NCBI GenBank assembly: GCA_964383765.1
Contig: CAYLHT010000001.1
Location: 100,998 to 164,997 of the forward strand
Length of the DNA stretch: 64,000 nucleotides
Direction: 5' to 3'
DNA from: an uncultured Gammaproteobacteria bacterium
Lineage (GTDB): Bacteria > Patescibacteriota > Patescibacteriia > SBBC01 > CAIJZX01
In this document: positions 6,246-42,391 of the stretch, piece after piece
How positions within the stretch are numbered: the first letter of the stretch is position 1
Layout of the letters: every line of letters begins with the position of its first letter
Program-made: the position numbers and the translations under genes
The notes under the pieces: generated by a model
Database searches by the model: none
Told to the model about the DNA's origin: nothing
The model's input: the letters and a program-made list of their open reading frames with translations, nothing else

Positions 6246-8065
6246 TTGGCCTCCTGAAGTGTCCGTTTCTTCGTGGTTACGACCGAGGCGATCACGGTAT
6301 CACCCACGGCCGCGCCAGTCACGCCCTCAACCTTCATGCCGCACTCGTTCCCACTCGCCACAGCTTTGATATTCTGCTTGTTCTGTTGCAATTGGGTAAT
6401 GGTACCTTTGGCCACGGATTGATTATTCCGCAGCACCTCAACTGCCGCGCCCATCGTCATCTCGCCATCGCTGACCTTTCCGCCAAACACTTGGAAAGTG
6501 TTTTCATTGCGGAAAATCGCTAATATTTTCAAACGGCCGATTTCCTTAGTCTCTGCCAGCGGCGCTAGCATGTCTTCCAAGCGCTGGGTGACGTTATCAA
6601 TCAAATCGTAAATGACTTTTGAGGTGACAATGTCAATCCCTTTGGTGCGGCCGAGTTGCTCGGCCTTGGGCGAAACCTGGACATTGAATCCGTACACGAC
6701 CGCTTTAGCCGCTTCGGCACGGAGGATGTCCGCTTCCGACACAATTCCCAATCCGCGCTGCACGATTTCCACCGCGACTTCTTGACTGGGAAGTTTTTTG
6801 AGTGACTCGAGAATAGCTTCAGCTGAACCAAGCGTGTCGGATTTTAAAATTACGAATAACTTCTGGATTTTCTTTTTTTTCTCTTCTTCAGCTTGACGCT
6901 CCTCCTCGGTCGCGGCAATCGTGACGGGTGTCGACCGACCGGCCACTGTGTAGACGTGTCGGGTGAGTTGATGTGATTTCACTTTCTTCTTCAAATCTTT
7001 CACTTCATCCGGCGCCACACGCAAAATATCGCCAACTTGCGGCGCAGCCTTCAACCCGAGAATTTGCATCGGAGCTGACGGCGACGCCTGTTTGACCGTT
7101 TCGCCGCGATCGTTCTTCATCGACCGTATTTTTCCGAAGACTTGTCCGACGACGACGTCATCCCCCACTTTGAGCGTACCCGTGTGAATCAGCACCGAAG
7201 CCATCGGCCCTTGCTTCGGGTCAACGTGTGATTCAATAATCGTGCCAATCGCCGGACGGTGTGGATTGACGTTCAGTCGCGCAGCATCAACGTCCGCCAG
7301 TAAAATAATTTGTTCAAGTAAATCATTGATGCCGTCTTTGGTTTTGGCTGAGACGGCGACAATCGGTACTTTTCCGCCGTACTCCTCAGCCAACACTCCG
7401 GCCTCCGCCAACTCTTTTTTCACGCGTTCAACATTCGCTTCAGGTTTATCGGCCTTGGTGATGGCGACGCCGTACGGTAACTTGGCCGCTTCAATCATTG
7501 ACCGCGCTTCGGTAGTTTGGGGTTTGATGCCATCGTCCGCCGCCACAACCAAAATTGCGACGTCGGCGATTTTTGCACCGCGCGCCCGCATTTGCCCAAA
7601 GGCCTCATGGCCGGGCGTGTCGATGAATGTCACCGGCCGGTCATGGGTGTTAATCTGGTAGGCGCCGATTTTCTGGGTAATACCGCCGGCTTCTCCAGCC
7701 GTTACATTGGTAGATCGAATCGCATCGAGCAACGAAGTTTTTCCATGGTCAACGTGACCCATGACCACGACGACCGGCGGGCGGGCTTCAAGTTTGGCGG
7801 CCGGATCTTCTTTGAGATATTCTTCAATCGGACTGCCGGTTGTTGAATCGCTCGTGGTTTCGATGTCTTCAGTTTGCGGCGCGACCGACTTTCCGAGATC
7901 CTCAGCAATGATCACCGCCGTGGCGAAATCAATTTCTTGATTCATGGAGGCCATCACGCCGTTTTTGATCAGCTCCGAGGTGACGGTCGTGATCGGTAAG
8001 CCAAGCTTGTCCGCAAAATCGCGGACGATGATAGTGGGTGGGATTTTGACCGGCGCGTCAGGCAT
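6242..8065 (-). CDS. infB: Translation initiation factor IF-2
   Basis: 607 aa with the GTP-binding motifs VVVVMGHVDHGKTSLLD, DTPGHEAF and NKADK. Confidence 0.95.
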   Translation of the reverse strand: MPDAPVKIPPTIIVRDFADKLGLPITTVTSELIKNGVMASMNQEIDFATAVIIAEDLGKSVAPQTEDIETTSDSTTGSPIEEYLKEDPAAKLEARPPVVVVMGHVDHGKTSLLDAIRSTNVTAGEAGGITQKIGAYQINTHDRPVTFIDTPGHEAFGQMRARGAKIADVAILVVAADDGIKPQTTEARSMIEAAKLPYGVAITKADKPEANVERVKKELAEAGVLAEEYGGKVPIVAVSAKTKDGINDLLEQIILLADVDAARLNVNPHRPAIGTIIESHVDPKQGPMASVLIHTGTLKVGDDVVVGQVFGKIRSMKNDRGETVKQASPSAPMQILGLKAAPQVGDILRVAPDEVKDLKKKVKSHQLTRHVYTVAGRSTPVTIAATEEERQAEEEKKKKIQKLFVILKSDTLGSAEAILESLKKLPSQEVAVEIVQRGLGIVSEADILRAEAAKAVVYGFNVQVSPKAEQLGRTKGIDIVTSKVIYDLIDNVTQRLEDMLAPLAETKEIGRLKILAIFRNENTFQVFGGKVSDGEMTMGAAVEVLRNNQSVAKGTITQLQQNKQNIKAVASGNECGMKVEGVTGAAVGDTVIASVVTTKKRTLQEAK

Positions 8066-9932: not shown

Positions 9933-10304
9933 AGACTAATAAGCATTGCTATTTTACGCGTCCAATTTCACTTATGTCAACTTAGATTTGGCAAAGAACA
10001 GCAGATTGGGAAAGGACGCTATTTCGTATTAAATTGATGTCATGTTCAAAAGAACATCAATCTCCAAACAAACTTACCTTTGCGTAATCAGGCAAATTTC
10101 CCTAAACTAGTTCGGCGTATGGAAGACCGGCACATAAAAAAGGACCTTCTACACATACTACTACTGGTAGTTTTTGTAAGCGTCTCACTCGCCATTATCA
10201 GATACTTCGACAGCAAAAATCATTTTACGACTCAAATTGTTTCAAAGTTAATAAAATCACTCTAGTTTAGGTTTTACGACACGTGGAACACTGTTCCTCA
10301 ACTC

Positions 10305-10346
10305 GCCCCTGTAGCTCAACGGATAGACCTGCCCGCCATTGCCTGA
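10305..10346 (+). pseudogene. Degenerate tRNA-Arg-like 5' fragment (acceptor 5' strand plus D-arm), 'outer' gene split by an inserted hairpin-tRNA
   Basis: GCCCCTG-TA-GCTCAACGGATAGAC resembles the 5' end of a tRNA-Arg. Its 7-nt acceptor strand is exactly complementary to CAGGGGC at 10479-10485. Confidence 0.4.
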
Positions 10347-10419
10347 GCCCCCATAGTTCAATTGGATAGAACGGCCCCGTCCTAAGGGGCAAAACTTGGT
10401 TCGAATCCAGGTGGGGGCA
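10347..10419 (+). tRNA. tRNA-Arg (anticodon CCT)
   Basis: Manual cloverleaf: acceptor GCCCCCA/TGGGGGC, D-arm GTTC..GAAC, anticodon stem GCCCC/GGGGC with loop GTCCTAA, T-arm CTTGG-TTCGAAT-CCAGG. No encoded CCA. Confidence 0.8.
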
Positions 10420-10433
10420 CTGGCGAAGGCAGG

Positions 10434-10488
10434 CGGGGCAATCCCGTCCTAAGGGAGAGATAGAGGTTCAATTCCTTTCAGGGGCACC
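10434..10488 (+). pseudogene. Degenerate tRNA-Arg-like 3' fragment (anticodon arm CCT, T-arm, acceptor 3' strand, ACC)
   Basis: TCCC-GTCCTAA-GGGA anticodon hairpin, T-arm AGAGG-TTCAATT-CCTTT, then CAGGGGC-A-CC complementary to the 5' fragment at 10305-10311. Confidence 0.4.
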
Positions 10489-10522: not shown

Positions 10523-10598
10523 GGGCCCTTAGCTCACTTGGTAGAGCGCTTCCATGGCATGGAAGAGGTAACCGGTTCGATCCCGGTAGGGTCCACCA
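10523..10598 (+). tRNA. tRNA-Ala (anticodon GGC)
   Basis: Acceptor GGGCCCT/AGGGTCC with a G3:U70 pair, anticodon loop ATGGCAT, T-arm ACCGG-TTCGATC-CCGGT, CCA encoded. Confidence 0.85.
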
Positions 10599-10621: not shown

Positions 10622-10716
10622 ATTGAAATGTTCCACGTGGAACACTTGAAAGTTTTTAAATGTTCCTCGCGGAACAGTGTAAAATTTGTTAATGTTCCTC
10701 GCGGAACACTAGATTT
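10622..10716. promoter_or_regulatory. Array of three 17-nt palindromic units TGTTCC(A/T)CG(T/C)GGAACA(C/G) separated by 15-nt AT-rich spacers; a fourth related copy lies at 10281-10298
   Basis: TGTTCCACGTGGAACAC, TGTTCCTCGCGGAACAG and TGTTCCTCGCGGAACAC recur at about 31-32 bp periodicity between tRNA-Ala(GGC) and tRNA-Ala(CGC). They overlap candidate -35/-10 elements (TTGAAA, TTGTTA...TAGATT). Confidence 0.5.
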
Positions 10717-10745
10717 GGGCCTGTAGCTCATCTGCTAGGCTTGCG
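10717..10745 (+). pseudogene. Degenerate tRNA-Ala-like 5' fragment (acceptor with G3, D-arm remnant), 'outer' gene
   Basis: GGGCCTG-TA-GCTCATCTGCTAGGC is tRNA-like. Its acceptor pairs with CAGGTCA at 10879-10885, including G3:U70. Confidence 0.45.
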
Positions 10746-10853
10746 TCCAGCCCCACTTCTGAAGGGCCATTAGCTCAGTTGGCAGAGCGTCGCATTCGCA
10801 TTGCGAAGGTCAGCGGTTCGAATCCGCTATGGTCCACCAGAAGTGGGGCTGGA
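10746..10853 (+). repeat. Perfect 14-bp inverted repeat (TCCAGCCCCACTTC / GAAGTGGGGCTGGA) enclosing tRNA-Ala(CGC)
   Basis: The left arm 10746-10759 and right arm 10840-10853 are exact reverse complements. The loop is TGAA plus the 76-nt tRNA. Confidence 0.8.
10764..10839 (+). tRNA. tRNA-Ala (anticodon CGC)
   Basis: Acceptor GGGCCAT/ATGGTCC with G3:U70, anticodon stem TCGCA/TGCGA with loop TTCGCAT, T-arm AGCGG-TTCGAAT-CCGCT, CCA encoded. Confidence 0.85.
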
Positions 10854-10888
10854 AGGTAAGGGGTTCGAGTCCCCTCAGGTCAACCAAG
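10854..10888 (+). pseudogene. Degenerate tRNA-Ala-like 3' fragment (variable loop, T-arm, acceptor 3' strand, ACCA)
   Basis: AGGTA-AGGGG-TTCGAGT-CCCCT-CAGGTCA-A-CCA has a perfect T-arm but no anticodon arm. Confidence 0.45.
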
Positions 10889-10898
10889 TAATCTAGAC

Positions 10899-10919
10899 AT
10901 ATACCCCCGGGGGGTATAT
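10899..10919. promoter_or_regulatory. CsoR-type operator-like palindrome ATATACCCCC-G-GGGGGTATAT; may also act as terminator hairpin of the tRNA operon, as a T5 run follows
   Basis: A 10-bp perfect inverted repeat matching the GC-core/AT-flank architecture of CsoR/CstR family operators (ATACCC...GGGTAT). It lies about 180 bp upstream of the CsoR-family gene at 11098. Confidence 0.45.
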
Positions 10920-11097
10920 AATGTTTTTATGCGTCCCGTTAGAGATTTTTCAAAACAATCTGCCTTTGAATCGACAACGACCCTGCATCGACAGAGCCCC
11001 TTGAGATGTATACATACGCAGGTCTTTCAGAAGCATGACTAGCACGTCAATTTTTCCATGACCGGACAACTATTTAGTAACGTCAATCTCTAACGGG

Positions 11098-11349
11098 ATG
11101 CGTCGCGCATCACGAACCATCTCAGCTCGGATCCATAAGCTTTCCGGTCAACTCTTGGCGGTAGAGAAAATGCTGTCTGAGCGACGGGAATGTTCTGATG
11201 TTCTCAATCAACTGAGTGCGGTCCGCGCTGGTTTAGAACATGTCGCGCTCATCGTGTTTCAAAAAGAACTTCAACGCCTAGCCAGTAAAAAGGCTTTAAC
11301 CCTGAATGACGTTCAACGTTTATCCGAAACATTTAGTAAAACGACATAA
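11098..11349 (+). CDS. Metal/thiol-sensing transcriptional repressor, CsoR/RcnR/FrmR family (DUF156)
   Basis: 83 aa with RIHKLSGQLLAVEKMLSERRECSDVLNQLSAVRAGLEHVALIVFQ, aligning to the CsoR helix-bundle core. Only the first conserved Cys (ECSDVL) is present. Confidence 0.7.
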   Translation: MRRASRTISARIHKLSGQLLAVEKMLSERRECSDVLNQLSAVRAGLEHVALIVFQKELQRLASKKALTLNDVQRLSETFSKTT

Positions 11350-13081: not shown

Positions 13082-14308
13082 ATGACGAACCCATTCCATT
13101 CAGCCTTAACCCAACTCGATACCGCCGCAACGACTATCAAACTTGATCAGCGTTTACTTGATATTCTGCGGCAACCGCAGCGGATTTTAGAATTCACGAT
13201 TCCGGTTGAAATGGATAGTGGAAAAACGCGAGTGTTCACTGGCTATCGCGTTCAGTACAACAACGCCCGCGGTCCATACAAAGGCGGCATCCGATTTCAC
13301 CCGGAAACGAATTTGGATGAGGTCAAAGCCTTGGCCTTTTGGATGACGATGAAGTGCGCCATAGTCGGCATTCCATATGGCGGTGGCAAAGGCGGGGTGA
13401 CCGTCAATCCAAAGCAACTGTCCAAAACCGAACTTGAGCAGTTATCGCGAGGCTGGGTGAAAGCCATGTTTCCAAACCTTGGGCCGACCGTTGATGTGCC
13501 AGCGCCCGATGTCTACACCACCCCGGAAATTATGGCGTGGATGACCGATGAATATTCGAAGTTAGTTGGGAAGCCGACACCGGCCGCATTTACCGGTAAG
13601 CCCTTGGAGCACGGCGGTTCAGAAGGCCGGATGACCTCAACCAGCCAAGGCGGCGTGTATGTGTTAGATGAAATCATGAACAAACTGGGAAATGTTCCGC
13701 GTGGAACACGCGTTTCAATTCAAGGATTCGGCAATGTCGGCGCGTTTGCCGCTAAGATTTTACACGCGGAAGACTATACCGTCGTCGCAGTCTCAGATTC
13801 AAAAGGTGGAATCATGAACACTCAGGGACTAGATGTTCCGGCTGTACTCGCGCACAAAGAGAAAACCGGCAGTTTGGCTGGGTTTCCTGGCGTAGAGAGC
13901 ATATCCAACGACGATATTCTGACCATTGATTGCGATGTGCTGATTCCAGCCGCGCTGGAGAATGTCATTACCAAAGAAAACGCAGATGCGATCAAAGCCA
14001 AAATTGTCCTCGAGCTTGCCAACGGTCCAACCGCACCCGATGCGGACGCGATTATGTTCAAGCGCGGCATTCATGTCGTGCCGGATATTCTGGCGAACGC
14101 GGGCGGCGTGACAGGTTCGTATTTCGAATGGTTGCAGAATATGCAGAATGAGCATTGGACCGAAGCGCAGGTTTGGGACAAGCTCAAACCGTTAATGATT
14201 GAAGCGTTGAATGCGACGTGGACCATGGCTCAACACCATCAAGTTAATCTTCGAACCGGCGCCTACATCGTGGCCGTGCAGCGAATTGGGGAAGCGATGC
14301 AAAAATAA
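13082..14308 (+). CDS. gdhA: Glutamate dehydrogenase (Glu/Leu/Phe/Val dehydrogenase family)
   Basis: 408 aa with KGGIRFHP...VGIPYGGGKGG and the dinucleotide motif GFGNVG. Confidence 0.9.
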   Translation: MTNPFHSALTQLDTAATTIKLDQRLLDILRQPQRILEFTIPVEMDSGKTRVFTGYRVQYNNARGPYKGGIRFHPETNLDEVKALAFWMTMKCAIVGIPYGGGKGGVTVNPKQLSKTELEQLSRGWVKAMFPNLGPTVDVPAPDVYTTPEIMAWMTDEYSKLVGKPTPAAFTGKPLEHGGSEGRMTSTSQGGVYVLDEIMNKLGNVPRGTRVSIQGFGNVGAFAAKILHAEDYTVVAVSDSKGGIMNTQGLDVPAVLAHKEKTGSLAGFPGVESISNDDILTIDCDVLIPAALENVITKENADAIKAKIVLELANGPTAPDADAIMFKRGIHVVPDILANAGGVTGSYFEWLQNMQNEHWTEAQVWDKLKPLMIEALNATWTMAQHHQVNLRTGAYIVAVQRIGEAMQK

Positions 14309-30582: not shown

Positions 30583-30650
30583 TGGTCGGGGTACCGAGAC
30601 TCGAACTCGGGACCTCCTGCTCCCAAAGCAGGCGCGCTTCCAGGGCTTCA
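30583..30650 (-). pseudogene. Truncated tRNA-Pro(TGG)-like 3' fragment (D-stem 3' side through CCA)
   Basis: The reverse complement reads GCGC-G-CCTGC-TTTGGGA-GCAGG-AGGTC-CCGAG-TTCGAGT-CTCGG-TACCCCG-A-CCA. No complementary 5' acceptor strand is present; hairpins (GTCCCG-ATTA-CGGGAC etc.) lie upstream. Confidence 0.45.
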
Positions 30651-30759
30651 CCGTCCCGATTACGGGACAGGGCTCAGCCCGTCTCGGCGGTCGCGAGTGA
30701 AGCAGTTCACTCGCTGTTTCCGCCTCGACCCAACTTCGCTACTCGACATATGCCCGCAG

Positions 30760-30832
30760 TCGGGGCGGCGAGACTCGAACTCGCGGCCTCCTGCTCCCAA
30801 AGCAGGCGCGCTACCAACTGCGCCACGCCCCG
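30760..30832 (-). tRNA. tRNA-Pro (anticodon TGG)
   Basis: The reverse complement has acceptor CGGGGCG/CGCCCCG, D-arm GCGC-AGTTGGTA-GCGC, anticodon stem CCTGC/GCAGG with loop TTTGGGA, and T-arm GCGAG-TTCGAGT-CTCGC. Confidence 0.85.
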
Positions 30833-30855
30833 ACAGCGGGCACTTACACGTGCGG

Positions 30856-40879: not shown

Positions 40880-40890
40880 CTGGCATTGAC

Positions 40891-40932
40891 CCAGTCCCAG
40901 TTTTTGTTATAACAAAAACTGGGACTGGGTTG
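40891..40932. repeat. Perfect 20-bp-stem hairpin ACCCAGTCCCAGTTTTTGTT-AT-AACAAAAACTGGGACTGGGT
   Basis: An exact inverted repeat immediately downstream of dedA; a likely transcription terminator. Confidence 0.5.
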
Positions 40933-42361: not shown

Positions 42362-42391
42362 TCCAGCCCCAGTCACCTGACTGGGGCTGGA
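42362..42391. repeat. Perfect 14-bp inverted repeat TCCAGCCCCAGTCA-CC-TGACTGGGGCTGGA; terminator-like hairpin sharing 10-bp outer arms with the tRNA-Ala(CGC)-enclosing repeat
   Basis: Exact reverse-complement arms. The outer 10 bp (TCCAGCCCCA/TGGGGCTGGA) are identical to those at 10746-10755/10844-10853. Confidence 0.6.

Follow-up and report, generated by a model that had tools for sequence, protein, structure and literature searches.

A tRNA-Ala gene nested within the remains of another tRNA-Ala gene, and the recurrence of tRNA-in-tRNA loci in Patescibacteria

In a 64-kb stretch of chromosome from an uncultured member of the Patescibacteriota (assembly GCA_964383765.1, contig CAYLHT010000001.1, positions 100,998 to 164,997; the whole of these 64,000 nucleotides is hereafter called the window), an intact transfer RNA (tRNA) gene, tRNA-Ala(CGC), lies in the loop of a perfect inverted repeat that in turn interrupts a second, degenerate tRNA-Ala gene. 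A comparable nest, formed by a tRNA-Arg(CCU) gene within a second tRNA-Arg(CCU) gene, is found 330 nt upstream, and nested loci of this kind recur widely in Patescibacteria (the bacteria of the candidate phyla radiation, CPR), with exact insert boundaries, almost always the same anticodon inside and outside, a common sense orientation of the two genes and outer copies in all states from intact to broken. The reading preferred here, to which a probability of roughly 0.55 is given, is that the inner gene is the working copy and is expressed from the promoter of the outer one, that the outer gene is a disrupted and redundant copy, and that the locus as a whole is an old, partly decayed nested tRNA gene.

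Anatomy of the tRNA-Ala and tRNA-Arg nests

The tRNA-Ala nest occupies positions 10717-10888 of the window and is composed of the following parts, which are listed together with an ordinary tRNA-Ala gene of the same cluster.

10523..10598, + strand: ordinary, un-nested tRNA-Ala(GGC), the closest paralogue of the outer tRNA-Ala remnant (ARAGORN, Rfam)
10717..10745, + strand: outer tRNA-Ala remnant, 5' part; acceptor strand GGGCCTG, TA, D-arm remnant with one D-stem base gone, TTGCG
10746..10761, + strand: 5' arm of the Ala stalk, TCCAGCCCCACTTCTG, complementary to 10838-10853 over 16 bp and dominating the predicted fold; an AA spacer follows at 10762-10763
10764..10839, + strand: intact inner gene, tRNA-Ala(CGC), its CCA encoded, presumed to be the working copy (ARAGORN; Rfam RF00005, 68.6 bits, E = 7e-13)
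10838..10853, + strand: 3' arm of the Ala stalk, CAGAAGTGGGGCTGGA, the first two bases of which are the CA of the inner CCA
10854..10888, + strand: outer tRNA-Ala remnant, 3' part; variable loop AGGTA, perfect T arm AGGGG-TTCGAGT-CCCCT, acceptor strand CAGGTCA, A, CCA

A sequence-only reading of this locus had described the arms as exact reverse complements of 14 bp, TCCAGCCCCACTTC (10746-10759) and GAAGTGGGGCTGGA (10840-10853), enclosing only TGAA and an intact tRNA-Ala(CGC) of 76 nt. The coordinates hold, ARAGORN and the RF00005 model agree on the inner gene and nothing else lies between the arms, the one amendment being that the perfect pairing in fact reaches 16 bp (10746-10761 with 10838-10853), because the TG that follows the 5' arm pairs with the CA of the encoded CCA. 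The resulting stalk is the longest long-loop perfect inverted repeat of the window, and about 0.002 repeats of this kind would be expected by chance. It dominates the predicted fold of 10717-10888 (-84 kcal/mol, z = -5.9), which consists of the outer acceptor stem, the long stalk, the inner cloverleaf and the outer T arm, with the stalk and the inner acceptor stem predicted to form a long, near-continuous helix. Folded alone, the cassette reaches z = -7.6.

The claim that tRNA-like halves stand outside the arms was borne out by two kinds of comparison. The 5' half equals tRNA-Ala(GGC) at 19 of 24 positions, a match equalled by only one of 2000 shuffled sequences, and this direct repeat takes in the 4 nt upstream (ATTT); the 3' half equals both Ala genes at 26 of 33 positions, with none of 2000 shuffles as good. 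A search for single deletions that would restore a tRNA from the native outer sequence returned nothing credible, only nonsense calls at low threshold, because the anticodon arm is missing, and the intron mode of ARAGORN likewise gave nothing credible for the native region. In view of the outcome of the deletion search a graft test was chosen, in which the anticodon arm of tRNA-Ala(GGC) was placed between the outer halves and the product was submitted to ARAGORN at default stringency. A full-length tRNA-Ala was called at six adjacent cut points, compared with 0 of 1000 shuffled halves. Judging from these sequence comparisons, the outer flanks are derived from a tRNA-Ala gene.

The damage to this gene goes somewhat beyond what had been supposed. 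The outer acceptor strands do pair and the G3:U70 pair is present, but only 6 of the 7 pairs can form, since the 3' strand, which keeps U70, has a mismatched A72 facing G1. Similarly, the outer halves had been taken for a tRNA-Ala minus its anticodon arm; that arm is wholly gone, but the D stem has also lost one base.

The tRNA-Arg nest, whose cassette belongs to a family of elements here called family A, is arranged as follows.

10305..10327, + strand: outer tRNA-Arg(CCU), exon 1; acceptor, D loop and the first two bases of the D-stem 3' strand
10328..10437, + strand: family-A cassette; 5' arm CCTGCCCGCCATTGCCTGA (10328-10346), inner tRNA-Arg(CCU) (10347-10420), 3' arm TGGCGAAGGCAGGCGGG (10421-10437)
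10438..10488, + strand: outer tRNA-Arg(CCU), exon 2; rest of the D stem, anticodon arm ATCCC-GTCCTAA-GGGAG, T arm, acceptor 3' strand

Here the outer copy is intact. Deleting exactly 10328-10437 rebuilds its D stem (GCTC/GAGC) and yields a tRNA-Arg(cct) called by ARAGORN at default settings, with the junction after nucleotide 23. The inner tRNA-Arg(CCU) is called by ARAGORN and scores 57.7 bits in Rfam, the cassette folds with -58.5 kcal/mol (z = -5.1), and its ends (CCTGCCCGCC... on the 5' arm and ...GGCAGGCGGG on the 3' arm) are common to at least 118 further elements.

The two nests thus share a complete tRNA between inverted-repeat arms, flanked on the outside by co-oriented tRNA parts of the same identity. 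They differ in that exact deletion of the insert restores an outer tRNA with the anticodon of the inner one at the Arg locus, whereas it does not at the Ala locus, which for this reason is classed as a decayed nest, like those of loci L133, L135 and L122. In both cases the outer halves are collinear, on a single strand and separated by a short distance (108 nt for Ala, 110 nt for Arg), which is not the arrangement of a split or permuted tRNA gene.

Recurrence of the nests, their arms and their outer copies

Species-representative genomes were scanned for two T-loop motifs 30-60 nt apart, a spacing chosen because two separate tRNA genes cannot give it, and metagenomes were scanned with a family-A pattern (CCTGCC, a T loop, GCAGGCRGG) built from the ends shared by the Arg cassette of the window and an insert in a tRNA-Pro of Nealsonbacteria (L100). 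Because T-loop and arm patterns governed the choice of both samples, and because the matches were listed in part, the samples are ascertainment-biased and the frequencies reported are lower bounds. The genome scan listed 60 called tRNAs with an orphan T loop behind them. Among these listed matches, 14 of the 60 orphan acceptor strands had a perfect upstream partner, compared with 6 in the control, and a canonical D-arm start was also present in at least nine loci, in addition to the Arg nest of the window. All nine of these genome nests, again among the matches listed, join genes of the same identity (Gln, Thr, Glu, Val twice, Ser twice, Met and Pro); seven come from named Patescibacteria lineages and two from unclassified bacteria.

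The metagenome scan gave at least 124 family-A matches, at least 119 of them unique, with a called inner tRNA in 121 of the 124 listed (116 of the 119 unique). More than 25 tRNA species are represented, and the inserts measure 99-144 nt, about 75 nt of which is tRNA. In 56 unique elements among the matches listed, exact deletion of the insert produced an outer tRNA across the junction. The restored outer tRNA carried the anticodon of the inner one in 49 of the 56 (shuffled pairings: mean 2.6, maximum 9), the exceptions looking like register miscalls, and the two genes were co-oriented in every case (56 sense, 0 antisense). The junctions cluster at nucleotides 20-25, 33-37 (mode 35/36) and 54-58, that is, in the D, anticodon and T regions, and for junctions in the anticodon loop it is only the exact boundaries that restore the matching anticodon.

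No uninterrupted orthologue of the outer Ala gene was found by a synteny search via TrxB: the nearest relative with DNA (L001, 70% TrxB identity) keeps the CsoR-Trx-TrxB-Gdh block and has no tRNA cluster there. A phage vector was also considered and rejected, as each of the two arm patterns, that of family A included, had a single chance match among 2.9 million viral contigs, and no tRNA was present in either. A separate phenomenon met with in several CPR and non-CPR genomes is the presence of tandem tRNA 3' fragments, with a period of 48-70 nt, after an intact tRNA (L106, 1935-2060; also L075, L084, L112 and L114); these arrays reflect repeated duplication of the 3' part and are distinct from nesting.

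The arms themselves are found outside the nests. Their family-A ends (CCTGCCCGCC and GGCAGGCGGG) are conserved beyond the bases demanded by the search pattern, and a 20-nt perfect palindrome without any cargo, CCTGCCTGCCGGCAGGCAGG, occurs as a second insert in outer tRNAs, three of which (L129, L123 and L227) are restored once both inserts are deleted. The same palindrome is present in plain intergenic DNA, sometimes accompanied by tandem half-site arrays. In total, empty palindromes of 20-22 nt (CCTGCC..GGCAGGCAGG) were seen at ten loci comprising outer tRNAs and intergenic DNA, and tandem half-site arrays of the family-A arms at L140 and L212. At these two loci up to four copies of the half-site CCTGCCTAC run into the palindrome centre within non-tRNA DNA (L140, about 7741-7779, - strand; L212, 12806-12880), and at L212 GGCAGGC repeats follow that centre; it would seem from this that the arm repeats can amplify by themselves. 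Moreover, family-A arms surround a nested tRNA-Arg in reverse orientation at L166, GC-rich arms of other families are found around nested Trp, Gly, Arg and Ala genes, and short "emptied" elements exist that consist of arms and linkers only. The same arm and linker types are found around different tRNA species and at different junctions, with a central tRNA that always matches the host. Because of the empty copies, the reverse-oriented arms and the use of the same arms on different tRNAs and junctions, the arms behave like a repeat family at the level of DNA and unlike an RNA motif that belongs to a single gene.

As multi-copy, non-coding palindromes with intergenic sites among their locations, the family-A arms have the distinguishing trait of REP and REPIN sequences and of miniature inverted-repeat transposable elements (MITEs), which is not shown for the Ala-type arms. 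No copy of the latter with a tRNA inside was found elsewhere, and a single empty hairpin of the window (42362-42391) shares a 10-nt motif with them, the first 10 bases of its arm being the same as in the Ala stalk. This hairpin is perfect and terminator-like (TCCAGCCCCAGTC-ACCT-GACTGGGGCTGGA) and lies about 50 nt upstream of tRNA-Cys; another perfect terminator-like hairpin, with 19-bp arms and a related CCCAGTCCCAG motif, is located at 40889-40930.

The outer copies form a continuum. Among the matches listed, 56 are intact, 18 are recoverable only with further deletions or relaxed calling, and about 41 are visible as broken exons. Several of them (L133, L135 and L122) lack exactly the anticodon arm, as does the outer Ala gene of the window, and further nested Ala cases have partly deleted outer copies (L136, L215 and L176). 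The outer copies recognised by ARAGORN form on average 20.2 of 21 stem pairs versus 20.8 of 21 for the inner ones (p = 6e-4), values of 19 or fewer occur in outer copies only, and it is in outer copies that further small hairpins have accumulated as inserts. Wherever a tRNA-like sequence interrupted by a hairpin was recovered in 1.7 Mb, an intact tRNA with the same anticodon lies within 250 nt, and no sole-copy tRNA gene with a hairpin insert was found among the approximately 157 other tRNA genes of this sequence. The erosion of the outer but not the inner copies, together with the restriction of extra hairpin inserts to places where an intact copy with the same anticodon adjoins, lends support to the earlier proposal that a hairpin-bounded cassette sits inside a tRNA gene of the same identity and functionally replaces it. 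In a published survey, tRNAs for all 20 amino acids were found by standard tools in 85 of 95 complete Patescibacteria genomes, and the missing ones were accounted for by group I introns (PMC13011429).

The inner and outer genes of a nest are between about 60% and 100% identical (median 75%), and both partners still fold, owing to compensatory changes. In the youngest nests (L138, L142 and L173) the two are identical or nearly so (71/71 positions in L138, one mismatch in L142), which suggests that nests can arise by copying of the host gene. L142 and L173 possess, in addition, extra layers of arms and exons that resemble direct-repeat expansions. These features are compatible with an origin in which the host gene is copied locally into the middle of the element and the nest later expands or contracts between the direct repeats that it necessarily creates.

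Explanations for the nested architecture

In the preferred reading, the inner gene, which has no recognisable promoter of its own, would be transcribed from the promoter of the outer gene as part of one precursor. The arms would zip into a clamp helix, which would prevent false pairing between the inner cloverleaf and the outer halves, homologous as these are, and would present the inner tRNA to RNase P and to the enzymes of 3'-end maturation. The outer gene, as a disrupted and redundant copy, would receive no repair at the RNA level and would slowly erode. The arms would derive from GC-rich palindromic repeats acting at the DNA level and preferring the loops of tRNA genes as landing sites, and the identity of anticodon and orientation may have two causes, namely that only a self-rescuing insert would leave the cell viable, and that the insert would be generated by local copying of the host gene. 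A simple sigma-70 scan of the + strand upstream of the tRNA cluster yielded no convincing promoter. The suggestion that the stalk is a processing device comparable to those of ribosomal RNA (rRNA) precursors survives in part within this model, in that the stalk is probably a folding and processing clamp for the inner tRNA; as it leaves the tRNA-derived flanks unexplained, it does not amount to a true rival.

Several observations weigh against the redundancy of the outer copy. Many outer genes are intact and carry the exact anticodon in spite of a divergence of 25-35% from the inner gene, most of which is due to compensatory changes in the stems. Each tRNA species has its nest at a constant junction across genomes whose flanks are saturated, the outer exons being still about 72% identical compared with about 46% for the flanks, and inner copies often cluster with inner copies and outer with outer, as separate orthologous groups. 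A neutral relic should not last so long, which means either that nests are re-formed or spread by recombination, or that the outer copies are under selection, that is, spliced. The arm sequence is also conserved beyond the needs of pairing, which suggests a sequence-specific partner, and the entry of a tRNA copy into the centre of the element is left unexplained by this model. A screen of open reading frames (ORFs) flanking about 115 loci for the GIY-YIG motif detected it at three loci, with no systematic link; small GIY-YIG-type ORFs (84-91 aa) were noticed ending 24-146 nt from tRNA loci at L146 (1221-1497), L203 (7540-7795), L227 (4827-5094) and L065 (near 7650).

Persistence of this kind would be accounted for if the insert were a true intron, with the cassette cut at the base of the arm helix and the exons ligated, so that two tRNAs with the same anticodon would be produced per transcript. 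The arm ends CCUGCCCGCC...GGCAGGCGGG would then serve as the recognition element of an endonuclease and a ligase, possibly with RNase P or RNase Z acting on the inner tRNA, and the outer Ala copy of the window would have died since. Such a scheme accommodates the exact boundaries and the canonical same-anticodon tRNA recovered by deletion, the intact outer copies with compensatory changes at 25-35% divergence, the junctions conserved for each tRNA species in saturated flanks, the separate clustering of inner and outer copies and the strong conservation of the arms. Outer genes with two or three exact inserts resemble the multi-intron tRNAs of archaea, and the strictly sense orientation, as well as a hairpin slightly more stable on the sense strand (p = 7e-4), points in the same direction. 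However, no tRNA gene was found that contains an empty element alone and lacks an adjoining intact copy with the same anticodon, the outer copies are measurably more eroded than the inner ones and many are clearly dead, and empty elements and half-site arrays occupy intergenic DNA, with arms also occurring in reverse orientation. There is, in addition, no ribozyme signature, no bulge-helix-bulge geometry was seen at the junctions by inspection, and no RtcB or EndA gene is present in the window, although 64 kb say little about a whole genome. Protein-dependent tRNA splicing is not known from bacteria. On balance the intron explanation is judged unlikely, if worth serious consideration, and the same guarded estimate applies to the wider claim that protein-dependent (or RNase P/Z-assisted) tRNA splicing takes place in Patescibacteria and that the arms mark a new class of bacterial tRNA intron able to hold a whole tRNA. 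If splicing did take place, one precursor would provide two tRNAs with the same anticodon, and the nest would be maintained by selection and would not be a scar.

The near identity of inner and outer genes in the youngest nests (L138 and L142) invites a different account, in which there is no mobile cassette carrying cargo. A small, GC-rich palindrome would land in an essential single-copy tRNA gene, the tip of its hairpin would break and the tRNA of the sister chromosome would be copied in as a templated insertion, rescuing the cell with the same anticodon and orientation automatically; slippage between direct repeats would later expand or resolve the nest. The expansion-like extra layers of L142 and L173, the same arms and linkers on many tRNA species with a centre that always matches the host, and the short emptied elements of arm and linker all agree with this sequence of events. 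Nevertheless, most nests are only about 75% identical with both genes folding, a state that could hardly develop from identical copies with a neutral outer one, the fairly constant spacer beside the inner tRNA fits a defined cassette better than ad hoc junctions, and the repair route is itself deduced and not observed; taken together, this course of events seems quite improbable. A function for the outer halves as a tRNA-like top half is more improbable by far, be it as an Ala-accepting RNA in two pieces, in the manner of transfer-messenger RNA (tmRNA), or as a handle for RNase P or the CCA enzyme, with a stalk of the RNase III type. It would make sense of an outer Ala gene that keeps G3:U70, a perfect T arm and ACCA but no anticodon arm, of the weak, sub-threshold tmRNA matches of Rfam over the T arm and of the near-continuous helix made by the stalk and the inner acceptor stem, but not of the G1/A72 mismatch and the damaged D stem, of the varied ways in which outer copies decay, or of the outer copies in other nests that keep a full anticodon loop with the anticodon of the inner gene, which a mere handle would not need. 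Neither a tag reading frame nor a pseudoknot region is present, and a tmRNA identity of the outer Ala gene was rejected, as the Rfam scores lie far below threshold (15.9 bits for a threshold of 47 and 9.9 bits for a threshold of 84, over the T arm only) and ARAGORN found no tmRNA. Finally, the window belongs to a metagenome-assembled genome, in which repeats can be misassembled, but a chance resemblance or an assembly artefact is effectively refuted by the expectation of about 0.002 for such an inverted repeat, by the failure of all 1000 shuffled halves in the graft test and by the presence of the architecture in more than 120 independent assemblies of different projects.

Surroundings of the nests, related systems and significance

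Two or three of the nine tRNA genes of the window are affected by the architecture. A pair of tRNA-Pro copies on the - strand is arranged as follows.

30749..30843, - strand: tRNA-Pro(UGG) (30759-30832) with a leader-trailer stalk of 8 bp, GTGCCCGC (30836-30843) with GCGGGCAT (30750-30757), and no outer halves
30583..30700, - strand: degenerate second tRNA-Pro(UGG), about 60-110 nt downstream, with an empty GC-rich hairpin GTCCCGTAATCGGGAC (30653-30668) inside; Rfam tRNA, 29.1 bits

The leader-trailer duplex of the intact gene reaches -26 kcal/mol, beyond the 1% control threshold, and the degenerate copy is called by ARAGORN, as tRNA-Pro(tgg), only once the hairpin 30653-30668 has been deleted. 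The 110-nt spacer between the two copies is itself highly structured and contains several perfect hairpins. In other respects the window is an ordinary piece of Patescibacteria chromosome with housekeeping genes only, whose TrxB has its closest named relatives in Kerfeldbacteria; no transposase, integrase, RNA ligase or endonuclease was found among the scanned ORFs of the 64 kb.

Further repeats surround the nests. Directly upstream of the Ala nest there are three tandem 32-nt repeats (10623-10718) with the palindrome TGTTCCNCGNGGAACA, which could be an operator or promoter element of the tRNA operon. A related half-site lies upstream of the Arg nest (10276-10297) and another copy inside the glutamate dehydrogenase ORF (13693-13708), with four matches versus 0.02 expected. 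On the other side, the palindrome ATATACCCCCGGGGGGTATAT (10894-10922) overlaps a sigma-70-like promoter (11/12) just upstream of a gene for a CsoR/RcnR-family repressor (11098-11349) and has the appearance of an autoregulatory operator of this repressor. The segments GCGTCCCGTTAGAGATT (10931-10947) and AATCTCTAACGGGATGC (11085-11101) form a 17-bp inverted repeat around 137 nt in which there is no tRNA, and the repeat finishes at the start codon of CsoR. Arms similar to these, of the CCCGTTAGA type, surround tRNAs in L174 and L031, and a similar motif follows the CsoR gene of L001. The bacterial RNase P RNA of L105 (4246-4798, - strand; Rfam, 179 bits), a Saccharibacteria contig which has a nested tRNA-Val as well, spans 553 nt compared with 367 positions of the model; the surplus of about 190 nt is possibly an insertion.

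The nearest prior work concerns group I introns at position 35/36 of Patescibacteria tRNAs, and intron transposition and split tRNAs in archaea. The group I introns (Nakagawa et al. 2026, PMC13011429) resemble the nests in that they interrupt tRNA genes of Patescibacteria, have 35/36 as their commonest junction and escape standard annotation; they are, however, self-splicing, 184-894 nt long and endowed with a recognisable core, whereas the inserts of the nests have about 100-130 nt, about 75 of them tRNA, and no intron match in Rfam. A group I intron or other Rfam ribozyme was accordingly rejected, as Intron_gpI (RF00028) had no match in the window region (E <= 10) and none in the nine genome nests (E <= 0.1). 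The group I rule of U before the 5' site and G at the 3' end of the intron is not obeyed either: the inserts do end in G, but exon 1 ends in A in the Arg nest of the window and in G in L074, its last base showing no conservation across 115 elements. The archaeal non-canonical introns, transposed introns and split or tri-split tRNAs (Fujishima and Kanai; Randau) are similar in having short, exact inserts in the D, anticodon and T regions, sometimes several per gene, in the use of one insert family in different tRNAs and in the GC-rich complementarity that joins halves. They are distinguished by a bulge-helix-bulge cut by EndA and by the lack of a tRNA inside; the nests are bacterial, hold a whole tRNA with the same anticodon and showed no such motif on inspection, and removal of their inserts at the RNA level is hypothetical. 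In predicted folds the nest boundaries correspond, on inspection, to the blunt base of a 10-bp helix or, in an alternative register, to a 4-nt 3' tail. No bulge-helix-bulge (3-nt bulges 4 bp apart) was seen in this inspection of the folds, no dedicated search for the motif having been made.

At the DNA level, the arms recall REP and REPIN sequences, the Rickettsia palindromic elements and the Correia and other MITEs, all of them short, GC-rich, non-coding, multi-copy palindromes that lie empty in intergenic DNA or within genes, the REPIN being moreover a two-arm hairpin around a spacer; yet none of these is known to enclose a functional tRNA or to sit specifically in a tRNA loop and hold a duplicate of the gene that it interrupts. 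Among the window ORFs there was no candidate for a cognate transposase, be it RAYT, TnpA or another. Integrative elements that target tRNA genes are alike in that their insertion is self-rescuing, restoring the interrupted tRNA, and in leaving partial tRNA duplicates behind. They are, however, of kilobase size, encode an integrase, duplicate only the 3' part of the gene and have the fragments at their ends, whereas the nests are inserts of about 110 nt with a whole tRNA and both halves adjoining. An att duplication by an integrase was rejected for the Ala locus, where both 5' and 3' parts flank the 108-nt insert and the window has no integrase. In rRNA processing stalks and intervening sequences, too, a functional RNA stands in the loop of a leader-trailer helix that is a plausible endonuclease substrate; what lies outside the helix is spacer in that case and halves of a gene of the same kind in the nests, in which cleavage of the stalk is a prediction. 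The sequence-only reading knew of no bacterial tRNA gene organised in this way, and literature searches on nested or embedded tRNA genes, disrupted bacterial tRNAs and tRNA introns in CPR bacteria agree, having returned no description; their coverage is incomplete and an earlier account is possible. The tRNA-in-tRNA architecture is thus apparently undescribed.

In summary, if the nested architecture is what it appears to be, an insertion here carries a working copy of the very gene that it interrupts, and essential RNA genes would be organised and turned over in a manner that had escaped recognition. The arrangement is frequent, and standard annotation reports the inner gene only. It offers a model for how small palindromic elements may colonise single-copy essential genes in extremely reduced genomes, and it bears on the replacement and diversification of tRNA genes in Patescibacteria. 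Should the intact outer copies turn out to be spliced, this would be the first non-ribozyme tRNA splicing in Bacteria, and the nests would be a natural counterpart of the engineered tRNA-scaffold idea.

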